Shown piece by piece: positions 3,756 to 16,313 of a stretch of DNA of 16,313 bases (the stretch's first letter is position 1; every line of letters starts with the position of its first letter). Both the position numbers and the translations under genes were made by a program. The DNA is taken from positions 1 to 16,313 of the IMG/VR virus record IMGVR_UViG_2609459861_000002; one strand, 5' to 3'. The notes beneath the pieces were generated by a model that saw only the letters and a list, made by a program, of their open reading frames with translations, was not told the DNA's origin and did no database searches. Origin of the DNA: a virus (taxonomy: Duplodnaviria > Heunggongvirae > Uroviricota > Caudoviricetes).

Positions 3756-4133
3756 TCATGCAGCCTCCCGACGGGCAAGAATCCTTGAGCCGAACGCCAT
3801 CAACTCTCCACGATCAACGGTCGTAAAGTGGCAGTGTGTACGGGGGTATGGGTGCCAGATAATGAGCATCGAACCTTTATTATTTCCACTGACGGGTTTC
3901 TCAGTGAGTGGGTTAATAAATGCCAGTCGTCCTGCCGTGATGAATCTGACCTCACTGGCGGTTTGTATCGCTTCATGAAACCATCCGACAGATGTGTCAG
4001 CAGGCAATAACATTACACATCCCACACTACTGAATTTGTTTTCAGTGGCTGCCTTTTTCACAAAAGGGGAAATATTGCTGTATGGTGGATTCAACCAGAC
4101 ATAACCAGAGGCATATCTGGCTGAAAGAGGGGG
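3756..4133 (-). pseudogene. phage N6-adenine DNA methyltransferase (Dam family), 5'-truncated
   Basis: Translation contains the NPPY catalytic motif followed by MLLPADTSVGWFH..EVRFI.GRL.F.NP, as in phage Dam-type methyltransferases. Only 13 codons precede NPPY before an in-frame stop at 4134-4136, and there is no ATG; the track start is a TTG at the NPPY codon. The N-terminal part expected in this family is absent. Confidence 0.6.
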
Positions 4134-4506: not shown

Positions 4507-4643
4507 TGTTTGAGTTTTATATGGCAGAACTTCTTCGCCACCGCTGGGGGCATCTGCGCTTATATCGTTTCCCCGGTTCTGTTTTGACCGATTACCGAAT
4601 ACTGAAGAATTACGCCAAAACCCTGACAGGAGCAGGAGTATGA
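4503..4643 (+). CDS. ylcG: YlcG-like small phage protein (46 aa)
   Basis: Hand translation from the ATG overlapping the rusA stop (ATGA) gives [46 protein letters not shown], matching the small gene that follows rusA in DLP12-type prophages. Below the ORF-track size cutoff. Confidence 0.65.
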
Positions 4644-4728
4644 AGTCAGAGATAACAATCAACTAATACTGTTTTGTTGATTTTTGCTTGTAATTGGCGT
4701 TCTGGTCTGATTTTTGTGGAGTAAGTTG

Positions 4729-5112
4729 ATGCGTGATATTCAGATGGTTCTTGAGCGTTGGGGAGCGTGGGCGGCTAATAATCATGAAGATGTGACCTGG
4801 TCGTCCATTGCCGCCGGTTTTAAGGGATTAATTACTTCAAAAGTAAAATCTCGCCCGCAATGTTGTGACGATGACGCGATGATTATTTGCGGGTGCATGG
4901 CCCGTCTGAAAAAGAACAACAGCGATTTGCACGATTTATTAGTAGATTATTATGTAGTCGGTATGACATTCATGTCACTGGCAGGTAAGCATTGCTGCTC
5001 TGATGGTTATATCGGGAAAAGGTTACAGAAGGCTGAGGGCATAATTGAAGGGATGTTAATGGCATTAGATATCCGGTTAGAGATGGATATCGTTGTTAAT
5101 AACTCTAATTAA
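4729..5112 (+). CDS. late-gene antiterminator Q (Q82/QuuD type)
   Basis: 127 aa from the ATG at 4729 ([22 protein letters not shown]...), with Cys clusters [12 protein letters not shown] and HCC typical of the Q zinc-binding fold; sits between the rusA/ylcG nin remnant and the lysis genes. Confidence 0.85.
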
Positions 5113-5145
5113 TATGCCAATTGTTTACTAAAAATTATTAAAAAT

Positions 5146-5163
5146 GGGGCGTTGAGACGCCCC
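5146..5163 (-). terminator. intrinsic terminator downstream of the porin gene
   Basis: Stem GGGGCG/CGCCCC with 6-nt loop; on the minus strand it is followed by AUUUUUAAUAAUUUUU. The plus-strand side is A-rich, so it is not a plus-strand terminator. Confidence 0.5.
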
Positions 5164-5301
5164 CAAAAATAAAGGGTAATATATAACAGAAGGTTTATAT
5201 AGTTAGAAGCAAGGTTGTGCTTCTAAAGGAAGGGGTTGGGGGGAGCCCTTTATATGGGGGGGAGGCACCGCCCCCCGCAACATATCTTTTTCGTAATCAG
5301 A

Positions 5302-6399
5302 TTAGAACTGGTAAACCAGACCTACAGCAACGATGTCATCAGTGCTTACACCGAGTGCTTTAGTGAAGTCATTTTTGTCAAGCAGGTTGATTTTGTAATC
5401 AACGAAAGTAGACATATTTTTGTTGAAGTAATAGGTTGCACCTACATCAACATATTTGACTAAGTCCTGATCGCCCCATACTCCAAGATCCTTACCTTTA
5501 GATTGCAGGTAAGCAACGGACGGACGCAGACCGAAATCGAACTGATATTGTGCAACAGCTTCGAAGTTTTGGGCTTTATTAGCAACGAAGTGATCAGCAA
5601 ATACAGTCATATTCTGGGTTTCAGAATAGGTAGTGGCCAGGTAAATGTTGTTAGCGTCATATTTCAGACCTGCGGCCCAAACTTCTGCATTTTTACCGGA
5701 AGCAAATACTTCAGGAAGAACTTTCCCTGCATTAACTTGAGTGTCGGTACGATCAGATTTCGCATAAGTTGCACCGATACCGAATCCTTCGTATTCATAG
5801 GTAGCAGAGAAACCGAAGCCATCACCGTTACCTTCAGTGTAGTTATCGAAATCGCTACGATCGTTTTTGCCTTGGTACTGAGCAGCAAAGTTCAGACCAT
5901 CAACCAGACCAAAGAAGTCGTTGTTACGATAGGTTGCAACACCAGTTGCACGTTGAGTCATGAACACGTCGGTTTGAGTCCAAGTGTCACCACCGAATTC
6001 TGGCAGGACGTCAGTCCACGCACCGATGTCGTATGCTACACCGTAGTTACGGCCGTAATCGATGGAGCCGTAGTCACCGAATTTCAGGCCAGCGAAGGCA
6101 AGACGGGTTTTATCTTTGGAGGAACCTTGAGATTCAGCGCGGTTGCCTTTGAATTCATATTCCCACTGACCGAAACCAGTCAGTTGATCGTTGATTTGGG
6201 TTTCACCTTTGAAGCCAAGACGGGCATAAGTAGTATCACCATCATCTGCATCATTAGAGGAGAAGTAGTGCTTAGCATTAACTTTCCCGTACAGATCCAG
6301 CTTGTTACTGTCTTTATTATAAATTTCAGCTGCCTGAGCAGACATCGCCATCAGTACTGATGCAGCTACAGCAGAAATTGCCACTGTTAATTTTTTCAT
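5302..6399 (-). CDS. nmpC: outer-membrane general porin, prophage-encoded (NmpC/Lc/OmpC family)
   Basis: 365-aa ORF with signal peptide [30 protein letters not shown], porin-like Gly/Tyr/Asp-rich beta-barrel composition and C-terminal YQF. I recognise the N-terminal mature sequence as the NmpC/Lc-type phage porin. Intact, with no IS disruption. Confidence 0.93.
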
Positions 6400-6940
6400 C
6401 GTGAGCCCTTTTTTTTGAACTATTATTAAAAAATGATGTCACTGCGCGATAAATATTCATCTAATCAATGTGATTATTTCAAGATGTAAGTTTTGGTTTC
6501 TCGTTTGATTTGTGAAGTAGATCTCTATTTTTATCTGAACTTTTTTCTATCGAATCCTATTCATAGCTCTTGGCTGAATAAAAATAAATCTATTAGCCAA
6601 TTTATATTAACGGCTGTTATTTATAAGTGCTCTATAATTTGAAGATTCAATTTAAATCGGCTAAAAATAACACTGGAAATTATTTGTTAGTTATTTGTTG
6701 AGGTTTTCTTATGTATTTGTGGTGGTGTTTTGAACACTCGGTAGCATTCTCATAAATATCATTCAGTGGTTTACGTACGTAAAAAATTGGTTATGCTGTT
6801 AAGAGTGGTTACTTCGTCACACAGCTTAAACCCGCCGTCGAGCTGGTTTTTCCATTTTTTGAGTCTCGATATTAGCTGATAACTCAATACCTGAGTTATT
6901 CACTGACTCCGAGTCTGTTACGTTTCTGCTTTTTTGCGAT
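6400..6940. promoter_or_regulatory. AT-rich upstream region of the porin gene; may also hold plus-strand late-operon signals
   Basis: About 540 bp of strongly AT-rich non-coding DNA with A/T tracts, of the kind found upstream of enterobacterial porin genes. No specific sites assigned. Confidence 0.3.
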
Positions 6941-6988
6941 ACGTTGTATTCCCTCAATTTACACCCGCTTTGTCTGCGAGGTGGGGTT

Positions 6989-7204
6989 ATGAAATCCATG
7001 GATAAGTTAACAACGGGTGTCGCCTATGGCACCTCAGCAGGTAGTGCCGGTTACTGGTTTTTACAGCTGCTCGATAAAGTCACGCCCTCACAGTGGGCGG
7101 CAATAGGTGTGCTGGGTAGTCTGGTATTTGGCTTGCTGACGTACCTGACAAACCTTTATTTCAAGATTAAAGAAGATAAGCGCAAGGCTGCGAGAGGTGA
7201 ATAA
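6989..7204 (+). CDS. class II holin (phage 21 S-type pinholin) with dual-start motif
   Basis: 71 aa, [26 protein letters not shown]...: two predicted TMDs, Met1-Lys2-Ser3-Met4 dual start, charged C-terminus; GAGGTGGGG SD 2-10 nt upstream. The longer track ORF starts at an upstream TTG. Confidence 0.9.
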
Positions 7205-7701
7205 TGCCTCCATCATTACGAAAAGCAGTTGCTGCTGCTATTGGTGGCGGAGCAATTGCTATAGCATCAGTGTTAATCACTGGCCCAAGTGGTAACGATG
7301 GTCTGGAAGGTGTCAGCTACATACCATACAAAGATATTGTTGGTGTATGGACCGTATGTCACGGGCATACAGGAAAAGACATCATGCTCGGTAAAACGTA
7401 TACCAAAGCAGAATGCAAAGCACTCTTGAATAAAGACCTTGCCACTGTCGCCAGACAAATTAACCCATACATCGAAGTCGATATACCGGAAACAACGCGC
7501 GGCGCTCTTTACTCATTCGTTTACAACGTGGGTGCTGGCAATTTCAGAACATCGACGCTTCTTCGCAAAATAAACCAGGGCGATATCAAAGGCGCATGTG
7601 ATCAGTTACGTCGCTGGACATATGCTGGCGGTAAGCAATGGAAAGGTCTCATGACTCGTCGTGAGATTGAGCGTGAAATCTGTTTGTGGGGTCAGCAATG
7701 A
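7204..7701 (+). CDS. SAR endolysin (T4-lysozyme-fold muramidase, phage 21 R-type)
   Basis: 165 aa; N-terminal Gly/Ala-rich weakly hydrophobic SAR segment [20 protein letters not shown] followed by the lysozyme motif GLEG..Y.D..G..T; start overlaps the holin stop (TAATG). Confidence 0.93.
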
Positions 7702-8159
7702 ACAGAGTAACCGCGATTATCTCCGCTCTGGTTATCTGCATCATCGTCGGCCTGTCATGGGCTGTTAATCATTACCGTGATAACGCCATTACCTACAAAG
7801 CCCAGCGCGACAAAAATGCCAGAGAACTGAAGCTGGCGAACGCGGCAATTACTGACATGCAGATGCGTCAGCGTGATGTTGCTGCGCTCGATGCAAAATA
7901 CACGAAGGAGTTAGCTGATGCGAAAGCTGAAAATGATGCTCTGCGTGATGATGTTGCCGCTGGTCGTCGTCGGTTGCACATCAAAGCAGTCTGTCAGTCA
8001 GTGCGTGAAGCCACCACCGCCTCCGGCGTGGATAATGCAGCCTCCCCCCGACTGGCAGACACCGCTGAACGGGATTATTTCACCCTCAGAGAGAGGCTGA
8101 TCACTATGCAAAAACAACTGGAAGGAACCCAGAAGTATATTAATGAGCAGTGCAGATAG
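7698..8159 (+). CDS. Rz i-spanin
   Basis: ATG at 7698 overlaps the endolysin stop (ATGA); N-terminal [21 protein letters not shown] then a charged coiled-coil-like periplasmic domain; closely resembles lambda Rz. Confidence 0.9.
7918..8100 (+). CDS. Rz1 o-spanin lipoprotein (embedded in Rz, +1 frame)
   Basis: 60-aa ORF wholly inside Rz; lipobox LVVVGC, proline-rich mature region [13 protein letters not shown]. Confidence 0.85.
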
Positions 8160-8190
8160 AGCTGCCCATATCGATGGGCAACTCATGCAA

Positions 8191-8484
8191 TTATTGTGAG
8201 CAATACACACGCGCTTCCAGCGGAGTATAAATGCCTAAAGTAATAAAACCGAGCAATCCATTTACGAATGTTTGCTGGGTTTCTGTTTTAACAACATTTT
8301 CTGCGCCGCCACAAATTTTGGCTGCATCAACAGTTTTCTCCTGTCCAATTCCCGAAACGAAGAAATGATGGGTGATGGTTTCCTTTGGTGTTACTGCTGT
8401 CGGTTTGTTTCCAACAGTAAACGTCTGTTGAGCACATCCTGTAATAAGCATTGCCAGAGCGGCAGAAAACAACATTTTTTTCAT
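8191..8484 (-). CDS. bor: Bor lipoprotein (serum-resistance-associated moron)
   Basis: 97 aa from MKKMLFSAALAMLITGC (lipobox ITGC); I recognise it as lambda Bor-like. Opposite orientation to the lysis genes, as in lambda. Confidence 0.9.
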   Translation of the reverse strand: MKKMLFSAALAMLITGCAQQTFTVGNKPTAVTPKETITHHFFVSGIGQEKTVDAAKICGGAENVVKTETQQTFVNGLLGFITLGIYTPLEARVYCSQ

Positions 8485-9341
8485 CTTATTATCCTGTATT
8501 GTTAAAAACAGCAGAATCCTATGTGACAACAATTAAACGATAGTTAAATGGATTGATGAAAATTAAAACTATATAGGTGTACGGTCAGACTATTGGAGGT
8601 AGTCTGGATTTGAATGTCAGTGTGTTGTCGGCATTATGGCAATGCAATTTGGATAAAGCGGGGATTAAAAAGATAGAGGCGAGCCGGTCAGGTAGAAATG
8701 AATCAGGCTCAAAGTGAAGCGGAAAAGGTCTTTGGCACAAACTGATGCTGCCATAATTACAGCCTGATGACTTGTGGAATGAAACATGTTGAACCTCCTT
8801 AATTGATGTTATTCGAGTGAGGAAGGCATTCTGTCCTCCTATACTGTCCAGTAAATCAAACAGGAAGCTTGTCTCACGTGTGAGACAAGCCTCTCCATTA
8901 GCGAGTTGTATTGATCACAACTCTTCAAAGAATTCATTACTGGGTAGATGAAAATAGTTTCACGATGAATGGAGGAGGCTATGTTGGTGGCTTCTTCATT
9001 GGAGTACATATGCCCCCACGAACCCCAAAAACCTGCCGTGTTCGCGGCTACCGCAATACCACCACAGATCCGTCAGGCTATTGCAAAAGCCACAAAAGCG
9101 AAGGCTGGAAGCAATACAAGCCGGGCCAGTCCTGTCATCAGCGCGGTTATGGTTCGCGGGGTTGTCCCTCATGCTCGCCAGTCCTGTGCGGGGGGGGGAA
9201 GAAACAGGACACTCACACAGATTTTTGTGGGTCGATGCTATTCCTTTCTGGATTATCCCGATGCCATTCATGCAAGGGCTGTATCAGACGTTCGTCATGG
9301 CTGTCAGGCTGACGGGTCCTCCCGGTGGGGGGGCCTGCCAC

Positions 9342-9528: not shown

Positions 9529-10020
9529 ATGGATCATGAGTTGAAAAACCTGGTGCTGAATATTAATCAACTGGCGGCTTTATCTGGTCTGCACCGCCAG
9601 ACTGTCGTGGCAAGACTGAAAAACATTCGTCCCGCTGGTGGACATGACAAACTCAAGCTATACCGGTTGACCGATATTCTGACTGAATTTATGGGGTTAC
9701 CACCGCCGGTTGCTGAGGGCGAAATGGATCCACATGAACGCAAAGCCTGGTATCAGTCTGAACGTGAGCGTCTTAAGTTCGAACAGGAAACGGCACAACT
9801 CATTCCGGCCAGTGATGTCAGACGGGAGTTTGCCATCTGGGCAAAAGCGGTCGTGCAGGTGCTGGAGACATTACCGGATATTCTGGAACGTGACTGCGGC
9901 CTGCAGCCTGCTGCTGTGAGCCGTGTTCAGTCCATTATTGATGATCTGCGCGATCAGATAGCCCTGCGGGTGACCGAAGCAGGTGCGGATGATGAGGAGG
10001 AATTACAGCAGGAGGAGTAA
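9529..10020 (+). CDS. terminase small subunit (Nu1 family)
   Basis: 163-aa ORF with N-terminal HTH-like segment LNINQLAALSGLHRQTVVARLKNI and acidic C-terminus; stop overlaps the start of the large-terminase ORF (TAATG), the standard Nu1-A arrangement. Confidence 0.8.
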   Translation: MDHELKNLVLNINQLAALSGLHRQTVVARLKNIRPAGGHDKLKLYRLTDILTEFMGLPPPVAEGEMDPHERKAWYQSERERLKFEQETAQLIPASDVRREFAIWAKAVVQVLETLPDILERDCGLQPAAVSRVQSIIDDLRDQIALRVTEAGADDEEELQQEE

Positions 10021-11312
10021 TGCTGAATCAGGAAACCGCAAAGGCAGCACGAACCGATTCAGGTTATATCCTTCGCGCACCGAGACGAATGCGGGTTGCT
10101 GATGCCGTTGCTCAGTATATGCGAGTGCCCATGGGGGCCGGGAACTCAGTCCCGTGGGATCCGCTGGTGGCACCGTATGTTCTTGAGCCGATGAACTGCC
10201 TGGCCTCGCGTGAATACGACGCAGTGATATTTGTTGGTCCGGCACGAACCGGCAAGACTATCGGCCTGATTGACGGCTGGGTGATTTACAACGTGATTTG
10301 CGATCCTGCGGATATGCTGATCATTCAGATGACGGAGGAAAAAGCCCGCGAACACTCCAAAAAACGACTTGCCAGAACGTTTCGCGTCAGCCCGGAAGTG
10401 GTCAGTCGCCTGAGTCCGAACAAAAATGACAACAACGTTTATGACAGAACATTCCTTGCTGGCAACTACCTGAAAATCGGCTGGCCGTCAGTCAATATCA
10501 TGTCCTCATCAGATTATAAATGCGTGGCGCTGACGGATTATGACCGTTTTCCGGAAGATATTGATGGCGAGGGGGATGCCTTCTCTCTTGCCTCAAAACG
10601 TACCACCACATTTATGTCCAGTGGTATGACGCTGGTGGAGAGTTCCCCCGGCAGGGATGTGAAGGATGTGAAATGGCGACGGACTTCACCGCATGAGGCT
10701 CCACCAACCACGGGGATACTGTCGCTCTATAACCGTGGCGATCGCCGTCGCTGGTACTGGCCCTGTCCACACTGTGGTGAGTATTTTCAGCCCTGCGGCG
10801 ATGTGGTTGCTGGTTTCCGTGATATTGCCGATCCCGTGCTGGCAAGTGAGGCGGCTTATATTCAGTGTCCTTCCTGTTCAGGACGGATTATGCCTGAACA
10901 AAAACGTGAGCTGAACGGACGTGGGGTCTGGTTGCGGGATGGTGAATCCATCAATGCGGATGGCAGTCGTTATGGTGATCCCCGACGCTCACGTATTGCG
11001 TCATTCTGGATTCCACCCATTATCTTTAACGGAATAGCGTATAGCGATCCGGGAAGTGGTAATAACCCGGGAGGTACAAGATACACGGGTTATGGTTTTG
11101 AAGTTCGCAAAAACGGTGTATTAATCGCATCCAGAGAAACTAAAGGGGCCATTCCCGGTAGCTACAGTGCGGTTATTGATATGCCGAGTGGCAGGGGAAG
11201 CGTCACTCTGGAGTTTAAGGTTTTCCATAAAGGCAATCAGTGGGCAGGTAATATCACCGACTGTACGGTGATTGTGACCAAAAAAGCTGCTTCCGGCATC
11301 AGTATTCGTTGA
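10020..11312 (+). pseudogene. terminase large subunit (gpA family), N-terminal ATPase region only, fused in frame to about 100 unrelated codons
   Basis: Residues 1 to about 330 carry gpA-like landmarks (P-loop VGPARTGKT, CPHCGEYFQ zinc motif, GVWLRDG). Lambda gpA is about 640 aa; here the ORF ends at 430 aa and its last 100 residues do not resemble terminase. A hairpin-plus-T6 terminator and lom follow, which is the position of the J 3' end in lambda. Confidence 0.7.
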
Positions 11313-16054: not shown

Positions 16055-16313
16055 GGTGATGCTGCCAACTTACTGATTTAGTGTATGATGGTGTTTTTGA
16101 GGTGCTCCAGTGGCTTCTGTTTCTATCAGCTGTCCCTCCTGTTCAGCTACTGACGGGGTGGTGCGTAACGGCAAAAGCACCGCCGGACATCAGCGCTATC
16201 TCTGCTCTCACTGCCGTAAAACATGGCAACTGCAGTTCACTTACACCGCTTCTCAACCCGGTACGCACCAGAAAATCATTGATATGGCCATGAATGGCGT
16301 TGGATGCCGGGCA
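16055..16313 (+). mobile_element. IS1 insertion sequence, left end (partial, runs off the window)
   Basis: From GGTGATGCTGCCAACTTACTGAT (the IS1 terminal inverted repeat) onward the sequence matches IS1 as I remember it, through the insA 5' region. Confidence 0.92.
16110..16313 (+). CDS. insA: IS1 InsA (partial, 5' portion)
   Basis: GTG start at 16110; hand translation gives [68 protein letters not shown], the InsA N-terminus. Missed by the ORF track because it has no stop inside the window. Confidence 0.88.

Follow-up and report, generated by a model that had tools for sequence, protein, structure and literature searches.

The window, by which we mean the whole stretch of 16,313 nucleotides that was analysed, begins in proA and continues into a tRNA-Thr(CGT) gene (1369–1444); an Rfam scan of the whole window returned tRNA only. 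The tRNA gene is followed by a minus-strand integrase gene, a handful of early-left genes, a Dam fragment truncated at its N-terminus, RusA, a Q-type late antiterminator, a porin gene, a lysis cassette and bor. On the 3′ side of bor lie a small-terminase-like gene, an ORF in which the ATPase domain of the large terminase gpA is fused to the C-terminal receptor-binding domain of the tail-tip protein J, Lom, and a tail fibre of 1252 residues. From near position 16056 the sequence runs into what we take, by eye, to be IS1, inside which the window ends. The fusion implies that all head and tail genes between A and J have been deleted, and we identified no repressor, N or replication genes and no immunity region or pR in the prophage within the window, in agreement with its earlier description as defective. 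The only exact match to the fusion protein was on a single contig of E. coli 2-210-07_S3_C1.

The antiterminator gene (4729–5112, plus strand) is a quuD allele; its product matches Phage_antitermQ with an E-value of 4e-53 and is identical to K-12 QuuD in 127 of 127 residues, and the Q segment is collinear with the K-12 prophage DLP12 at 98.6%. An intact NmpC-type porin gene (5302–6399, minus strand; Porin_1, E = 4.7e-157) lies antisense between Q and S and belongs to the layout of the module, not to its lysis function. It takes the position of nmpC in DLP12 and phage 434, both of which have the gene split there by IS5, whereas the copy in the window is free of this element. Between the porin gene and S stretches an AT-rich leader and divergent intergenic region (6400–6988; GC content 28–33%), and the region 5′ of S is about 96.5% identical to the sequence upstream of K-12 essD. 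A scan of positions 4600–8600 (4.0 kb) for the sigma-70 consensus gave 4 sites versus 8.7 expected, with none between Q and S, and a home-made scan for sigmaE-like sites gave a single match, far from S, versus 1.4 expected by shuffling. Convergent with Rz lies the bor/iss lipoprotein gene (8191–8484, minus strand; Lambda_Bor, E = 6.4e-31), a neighbour and not a lysis gene, whose product is identical in 96 of 97 residues to Bor of phage 21 and to Bor of phage 434.

Open reading frames and overlaps of the lysis cassette

The cassette consists of four plus-strand genes: the holin gene S, which encodes a putative antiholin isoform of 71 residues starting at Met1 (S71, 6989–7204) and a putative pinholin isoform starting at Met4 (S68, 6998–7204); the gene for the SAR endolysin R, a GH24 muramidase of the R21/RrrD type (7204–7701, 165 residues); the i-spanin gene Rz (7698–8159, 153 residues); and, within it, the gene for the o-spanin lipoprotein Rz1 (7918–8100, 60 residues). 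All four ORFs are uninterrupted, have the lengths of their phage 21 counterparts (216, 498, 462 and 183 nt) and fall into the expected Pfam families. The cassette is intact, and with Pfam E-values down to 2.6e-54, its reading as a four-gene lysis cassette is not a matter of chance. PHROGs agrees with Pfam on the assignment of the lysis genes. NCBIfam has no equivalog model for S, R, Rz or Rz1 and gave matches below cutoff only.

The three kinds of gene overlap listed in the initial annotation are all borne out at the level of single bases. By direct reading, the S stop codon TAA (7202–7204) and the R start codon ATG (7204–7206) have a single A in common (TAATG), and the R stop codon TGA (7699–7701) and the Rz start codon ATG (7698–7700) form a four-base overlap (ATGA, 7698–7701). 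The Rz1 gene lies entirely within Rz in the +1 frame, as (7918 − 7698) mod 3 = 1. Two other E. coli remnants share the S/R, R/Rz and Rz/Rz1 junction geometries, as do phage 21, phage 434 and K-12 DLP12, except that Rz starts with GTG (GTGA) in DLP12 and phage 434, the ATGA form of the window copy being that of phage 21. Since gene lengths and junction geometry are otherwise common to the window, phage 21, phage 434 and DLP12, the overlaps are an inherited feature of the cassette and not specific to the window. An ATGA overlap between R and Rz is also part of the lambda map. Rz1 occupies 0.48–0.87 of the length of Rz, which fits the typical span of embedded o-spanins, from 0.4–0.5 to 0.9–1.0 of the i-spanin gene (PMC6139136).

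Mechanical ORF calling had extended S upstream to a TTG at 6944 and Rz to a GTG at 7686. Both extensions were dropped; the ATG start of S agrees with the curated records of both phages, 21 and 434, and the ATG start of Rz was preferred on the basis of the same records.

Holin, endolysin and spanins

S matches the Pfam family PF04971, Phage_holin_2_1 ('Bacteriophage P21 holin S'), with 121 bits (cutoff 26; E = 2e-35). The protein is identical over all 71 residues to K-12 EssD and to phage 434 S, and in 61 of 71 residues (86%) to S21; the 10 differences from S21 are all conservative and include W27L in the aromatic patch of the first transmembrane domain (TMD1). Holins at least 99% identical to that in the window are encoded by 41 phage records. 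By direct reading, codons 2–4 of the frame opened at 6989 specify Lys-Ser-Met, which puts a second ATG at 6998, and the Shine-Dalgarno sequence upstream of S is GAGGTGGGG. The 40 nt preceding S are the same as in phage 434, whose record marks two ribosome-binding sites (S71, S68) and lists S71 antiholin and S68 holin as separate products; in the phage 21 record, too, S68 is annotated as a product of its own, at the same offset as Met4 here. The Met-Lys-Ser-Met dual start, as proposed in the initial annotation, is therefore directly readable and agrees with the annotated products of phage 434. Hairpins over the Shine-Dalgarno sequence are predicted at the dual start in the window and in phage 21, but with z-scores of only −0.3 to −0.8 versus shuffled sequences they give no indication of a regulatory RNA structure.

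Hydropathy was assessed using summed dGapp values on the scale of Hessa et al. 2005. The best 19-mer in TMD1 of S is very weakly hydrophobic, with a sum of +6.5 (+6.4 for S21) and 47% Gly, Ala and Ser, whereas residues 36–54 form one clear TMD (TMD2) with a sum of +1.0. TMD2 keeps G40, S44 and G48, and is followed by a charged tail rich in Lys, Arg, Glu and Asp at residues 59–71. In S21, the G40xxxS44xxxG48 zipper of TMD2 is important, as seen in the mutational literature on this holin. The PF04971 score, the two hydrophobic segments and the dual-start motif all place S among the class II holins of the S21 pinholin type. S21 68 forms small heptameric holes of about 2 nm, which depolarise the membrane and do not allow passage of soluble endolysin (PMC9636201, PMC6116005). 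The S allele in the window would be expected to act as a pinholin as well, given its 86% identity to S21 and the fact that isolated phages combine it with R21-type endolysins.

R matches PF00959, Phage_lysozyme, with an E-value of 2.8e-45 and is identical in 163 of 165 residues both to full-length R21 of phage 21 (PDB 3HDE) and to DLP12 RrrD (4ZPU). Its residues 1–90 are the same as in R21, including the signal-anchor-release (SAR) domain and the catalytic triad E35-X8-D44-X5-T50. The SAR domain (residues 8–26, encoded at 7225–7281) is immediately preceded by the basic residues R6 and K7, consists for 58% of Gly, Ala and Ser, and has a marginal dGapp sum of +0.78 kcal/mol versus −1.59 for the TMD of Rz. 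This lysozyme domain with its triad, joined to a weakly hydrophobic, Gly/Ala-rich signal-anchor behind basic residues, is what characterises a SAR endolysin of the R21 type. The N-terminal signal of R21 reportedly stays uncleaved, with depolarisation of the membrane setting free and activating the enzyme (PMC6116005, PMC6139136). The marginal hydrophobicity, together with the identity to R21, thus argues against both a strong membrane anchor and a cleaved signal peptide. From its identical N-terminal sequence, the endolysin in the window would likewise be expected to stay uncleaved and to be released upon depolarisation. The hydropathy check suggested in the initial annotation therefore had the outcome that its SAR assignment predicted, the SAR segment (+0.8) and TMD1 of S (+6.5) being distinct from the true anchor of Rz (−1.6), and its interpretation of the pair as a pinholin with a SAR endolysin is supported.

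Weakly hydrophobic, Gly/Ala-rich SAR domains and the E-X8-D-X5-T triad are also found in Lyz of phage P1 and gp22 of phage Mu (PMC9239132). The similarity is only distant, with E-values of about 1e-8, and 1XJT and 1XJU are distant PDB matches. Partner proteins and the details of activation also differ from those of the system in the window, as P1 relies on disulfide isomerisation and Mu on a releasin.

Rz matches PF03245, Phage_lysis, with an E-value of 2.6e-54, as well as PHROG 13. It has an N-terminal TMD at residues 4–22, in which G18 stands where phage 21 has a Cys, and the periplasmic residues Cys99 and Cys152 are present. Rz1 matches PF06085 (E = 2.9e-20) and carries a lipobox, VVG|C20, a further cysteine, Cys29, and 10 prolines among the 41 residues of the mature protein. 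The Rz TMD, the lipobox and nesting of Rz1 and the presence of all three cysteines (C99 and C152 of Rz, C29 of Rz1) identify the pair as a two-component embedded spanin. Such cysteines form intermolecular disulfides according to the literature cited in PMC6139136, and both spanins are required in the phage 21 pathway.

A canonical lambda-type system, in which a large-hole holin frees a soluble cytoplasmic endolysin, would share a good deal with the genes described here. The gene order S-R-Rz/Rz1-bor is that of lambda, Rz and Rz1 are close to their lambda counterparts, with lambda isolates at 99.3%, and the S105/S107-R-Rz-Rz1 cassette of lambda likewise has a dual-start holin/antiholin and an embedded Rz1 (PMC6139136). 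Lambda S, however, is a class I holin with three TMDs that makes large holes, and lambda R is soluble, cytoplasmic and devoid of a SAR domain (PMC9636201), whereas S in the window, with two hydrophobic segments, is a class II holin of the P21 family and is paired with an endolysin that has the SAR extension of R21; the mechanism of endolysin release thus differs between the two types. The holes made by S21 have, moreover, been reported to be too small for lambda R (PMC6116005). We consider a lambda-type mechanism extremely improbable.

The four genes might also be mere ORFs, functionally dead through the substitution K91E in R, the Gly at position 18 of Rz or the loss of expression signals. 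K91E occurs in no phage record (best match 164/165), and its exact 31-mer is present in only 32 of 5426 complete genomes. Position 91, however, lies outside the catalytic triad and is variable, with Thr in distant GH24 homologues of solved structure, so that the substitution is probably neutral. The exact R and the exact Rz protein are each found on about 1000 contigs, the latter also in phage PhiR30_1, and neither the Shine-Dalgarno sequences nor the start codons are damaged. A dead cassette is therefore very unlikely.

Relationship to phage 21, phage 434 and DLP12

We compared the cassette gene by gene with phage 21 (OL657228), phage 434 (OL657227) and the DLP12 region of K-12. The curated records of the two phages annotate an antiholin, a class II holin, a SAR endolysin, an i-spanin and an o-spanin. 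In phage 21 (OL657228.1, 39866–41036), gene lengths, gene order, the TAATG and ATGA junctions and the +1 frame of Rz1 are all as in the window, as are the MKSMDK dual start, the SAR domain and the catalytic triad; besides the near-identical R, 149 of 153 residues of Rz and all 60 of Rz1 are the same. The main difference lies in S, where the window has a distinct, conservatively substituted holin allele and 51 of 216 nt differ. Upstream of S, phage 21 has pR′, tRNA-Asn and tRNA-Thr directly and no porin gene, unlike the window.

DLP12, which is also a defective prophage, has the order quuD-nmpC-essD-rrrD-rzpD/rzoD-borD, and the window is collinear with it from rusA to bor at 96.5–98.6%. In addition to the identical Q and S and the 163 of 165 residues of R, the two have 147 of 153 residues of Rz and 59 of 60 of Rz1 in common, whereas Bor is less similar (88/97). 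DLP12 differs in its IS5-bearing porin gene and the GTG start of Rz, while the window has an intact porin gene and an ATG-initiated, phage-21-like Rz. DLP12 is located at argU with intD; the remnant in the window has another integrase and abuts tRNA-Thr(CGT), at thrW beside proA. As the attachment site is not argU and only the block from rusA to bor aligns, we regard the shared part as a DLP12-like module (right arm) in a different remnant, and not as DLP12 itself. Phage 434 (OL657227.1), with the same S protein, differs in that its record is a complete phage genome with an IS5-bearing porin gene and a GTG-started Rz allele of the DLP12 type.

The cassette is thus a mosaic, with an S gene of the DLP12/434 type (6 nucleotide differences, versus 51 to phage 21) and Rz/Rz1 of the phage 21 type (4 differences versus 13). 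Such a mosaic would suit a neutral leftover, silent and intact only because the decay of the prophage is recent, that serves as a reservoir of spare parts for recombination with superinfecting lambdoid phages. The phage 434B record shares the nmpC::IS5-essD block with K-12 DLP12, consistent with acquisition from a cryptic prophage, and silence would agree with the lack of a pR/immunity region to drive Q and with the empty promoter scans 5′ of S. Against this stand the published transcription of the equivalent DLP12 copy and the persistence of intact copies in several differently decayed remnants (see below), and we regard a neutral leftover as possible but doubtful.

Proposed lysis pathway and possible roles in the bacterium

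Taken together, the locus very probably holds an intact lysis cassette of the phage 21/phage 434/DLP12 type within a decayed lambdoid prophage at tRNA-Thr(CGT) beside proA in E. coli. Such cassettes are already known; this is the textbook pinholin/SAR-endolysin/spanin system, RefSeq routinely annotates essD, rrrD and rzpD, and the proteins are 86–100% identical to experimentally or structurally characterised ones, with solved structures at 99%. The window thus contains a clean and correctly read example.

Because its proteins are near-identical to characterised ones, a mechanism can be proposed for the cassette along the lines of the phage 21 pathway (PMC9636201, PMC6116005, PMC6139136, PMC9239132, bioRxiv 10.1101/2021.04.20.440580). 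Transcription would presumably require Q, an intact antiterminator of the QuuD type encoded 1.9 kb upstream, and would traverse the antisense porin gene, in the manner of phage 434 and DLP12. A single S mRNA would then yield S71 from Met1 and S68 from Met4, the extra Lys2 of S71 preventing its weakly hydrophobic TMD1 from leaving the membrane and thereby making this isoform the antiholin. As S68 builds up, its TMD1 would exit the bilayer and TMD2 would form small heptameric pinholes, collapsing the proton motive force. Meanwhile, the endolysin would be exported by Sec and held tethered and inactive by its uncleaved, Gly/Ala-rich SAR domain, until depolarisation frees it to refold into an active muramidase using E35, D44 and T50. 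The complex of Rz in the inner membrane and the lipoprotein Rz1 in the outer membrane would finally disrupt the outer membrane. Like the overlaps of one and four bases, the nesting of Rz1 would go back to the phage archetype.

The initial annotation had called the cassette a potentially lethal module should it ever be expressed. Taken to mean that any expression kills, this goes too far: low-level transcription of the near-identical DLP12 copy is reportedly tolerated by K-12, whose cultures do not lyse (PMC7918800). Expression by itself need not kill, and cells would die only once the holin had built up to the level at which it triggers.

The DLP12 lysis operon is reportedly controlled by a Q-like factor, RpoE and Hha, and its deletion is reported to increase vesicle production about 4-fold, from which the authors argue for domestication (PMC7918800); the toxicity of Hha over-production is partly dependent on rzpD (PMC2408971). 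By analogy, the cassette in the window, together with Q, might be a domesticated host module kept by selection on the bacterium, with low expression aiding peptidoglycan turnover, vesicle control or biofilm formation. Besides the published regulation and vesicle phenotype of DLP12 and the part of rzpD in Hha-induced lysis, the distribution of the cassette offers some support for this. At least 80% of a 1.3-kb cassette query is present in 2712 of 5426 complete E. coli genomes, where the genes are annotated as essD, rrrD, rzpD and iss, and in 47 phage records. Q, S, R, Rz and Rz1 are intact among pseudogenised neighbours in the remnants of SCU-118 (at thrW) and ML35 (at att-lambda), so that with argU in K-12 and thrW in the window the Q-S-R-Rz/Rz1 block survives at three attachment sites where neighbouring phage genes have been deleted or turned into pseudogenes. 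High prevalence may, however, only mirror the commonness of lambdoid prophages. The thrW remnant of CUPS03 has lost the whole cassette block, and W409 keeps S and R but has a different Rz module; retention across the remnants examined is suggestive at most, an anecdotal pattern that cuts both ways.

Purifying selection on S and R is strong. Relative to phage 21, S differs at 38.5 of 49.5 synonymous sites with a dN of 0.08, and dN/dS for R is 0.03–0.05, but such low ratios could have arisen in phages and not in hosts. On balance, we consider the reading of the cassette as a domesticated host module unlikely, though worth entertaining. Its more specific form, in which the Q-S-R-Rz/Rz1(-bor) block has been selected in the host as an envelope-remodelling module and has survived in independently decayed remnants at no fewer than three attachment sites, seems to us rather improbable. 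In a weaker variant of host selection, the minority allele K91E might represent an attenuated, host-adapted form of the endolysin. Whether the lysis modules of cryptic prophages persist for the benefit of the host is a question already posed for DLP12, to which the window adds a further data point. Domestication would in any case be an added role, compatible with the identity of the genes as a lysis cassette of the phage 21 type.

Allele composition of the lysis cassette

Gene-by-gene comparison shows that the lysis cassette at 6989-8159 is a mosaic of two allele types. The holin gene S is of the DLP12/434 type, from which it differs by 6 nt as against 51 nt from phage 21, while the spanin genes Rz/Rz1 are of the phage 21 type (4 versus 13 differences); the ATG start codon of Rz, in place of GTG, is likewise a phage-21-type trait. 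The allele type switches near the junction of S and the endolysin gene R, and again around 7560-7600.

In the endolysin, codon 91 (7474-7476) encodes Glu, whereas the corresponding residue is Lys in the endolysins of phage 21 (R21), DLP12 (RrrD) and phage 434. The exact protein is absent from phage records, where the best match is identical at 164 of 165 positions, and an exact 31-mer carrying Glu91 is present in 32 of 5426 complete E. coli genomes. Since distant solved homologues have Thr at the aligned position, the Lys-to-Glu substitution is probably neutral.

Surroundings of the cassette and its retention in related remnants

An intact NmpC-type porin gene lies in antisense orientation at 5302-6399, between Q and the lysis genes, and late transcripts from Q must cross it. 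In K-12, phage 434B and ML35, the porin gene is interrupted by IS5-family elements, whereas the copy in the window is whole; in W409, a further E. coli remnant, an IS3-family element directly past the porin gene separates it from the holin gene essD. On the other side of the cassette, just past bor, the window carries the C-terminal piece of a second, different Rz1-like o-spanin (8577-8717; PHROG 3001 and 456). At the matching position, the SCU-118 annotation gives a partial "Rz1 lytic protein", and the fragment appears to be left over from another lysis cassette.

The block quuD-essD-rrrD-rzpD/rzoD, the DLP12 equivalent of Q-S-R-Rz/Rz1, stands intact amid pseudogenes in the remnants of SCU-118 (L005, at thrW), ML35 (L008, at att-lambda) and K-12 (L004, at argU), which are lambdoid, have decayed differently and occupy three attachment sites. 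The block is wholly gone from the CUPS03 remnant (L007, at thrW).

Deletions, rearrangements and prophage ends

The ORF at 10020-11312 combines two parts, the N-terminal ATPase domain of gpA, the large subunit of terminase, and the C-terminal receptor-binding domain of the tail-tip protein J. This gpA::J fusion is the mark of one deletion in which every head and tail gene was lost; E. coli 2-210-07_S3_C1 is the only strain for which the identical protein is recorded. At 3756-4113, the minus strand carries a Dam methyltransferase fragment covering only profile positions 65-168, whereas the otherwise collinear SCU-118 remnant has plus-strand NinB'/Dam/NinE/NinX genes there; this indicates that, where the early-left genes meet the nin region, a segment has been locally rearranged or replaced.

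No attR was found within the window. What we take, by eye, to be the left end of an IS1 occupies 16056-16313 and continues past the window edge, so the right side of the prophage would be bounded or truncated by this element. At the other end, a 64-bp stretch (1399-1462) comprises the tRNA-Thr 3' end and the prophage start; the SCU-118 remnant carries a second copy, 92% identical, at its far end (27283-27346 in L005), and this repeat is likely the att core of this thrW-integrating phage family.
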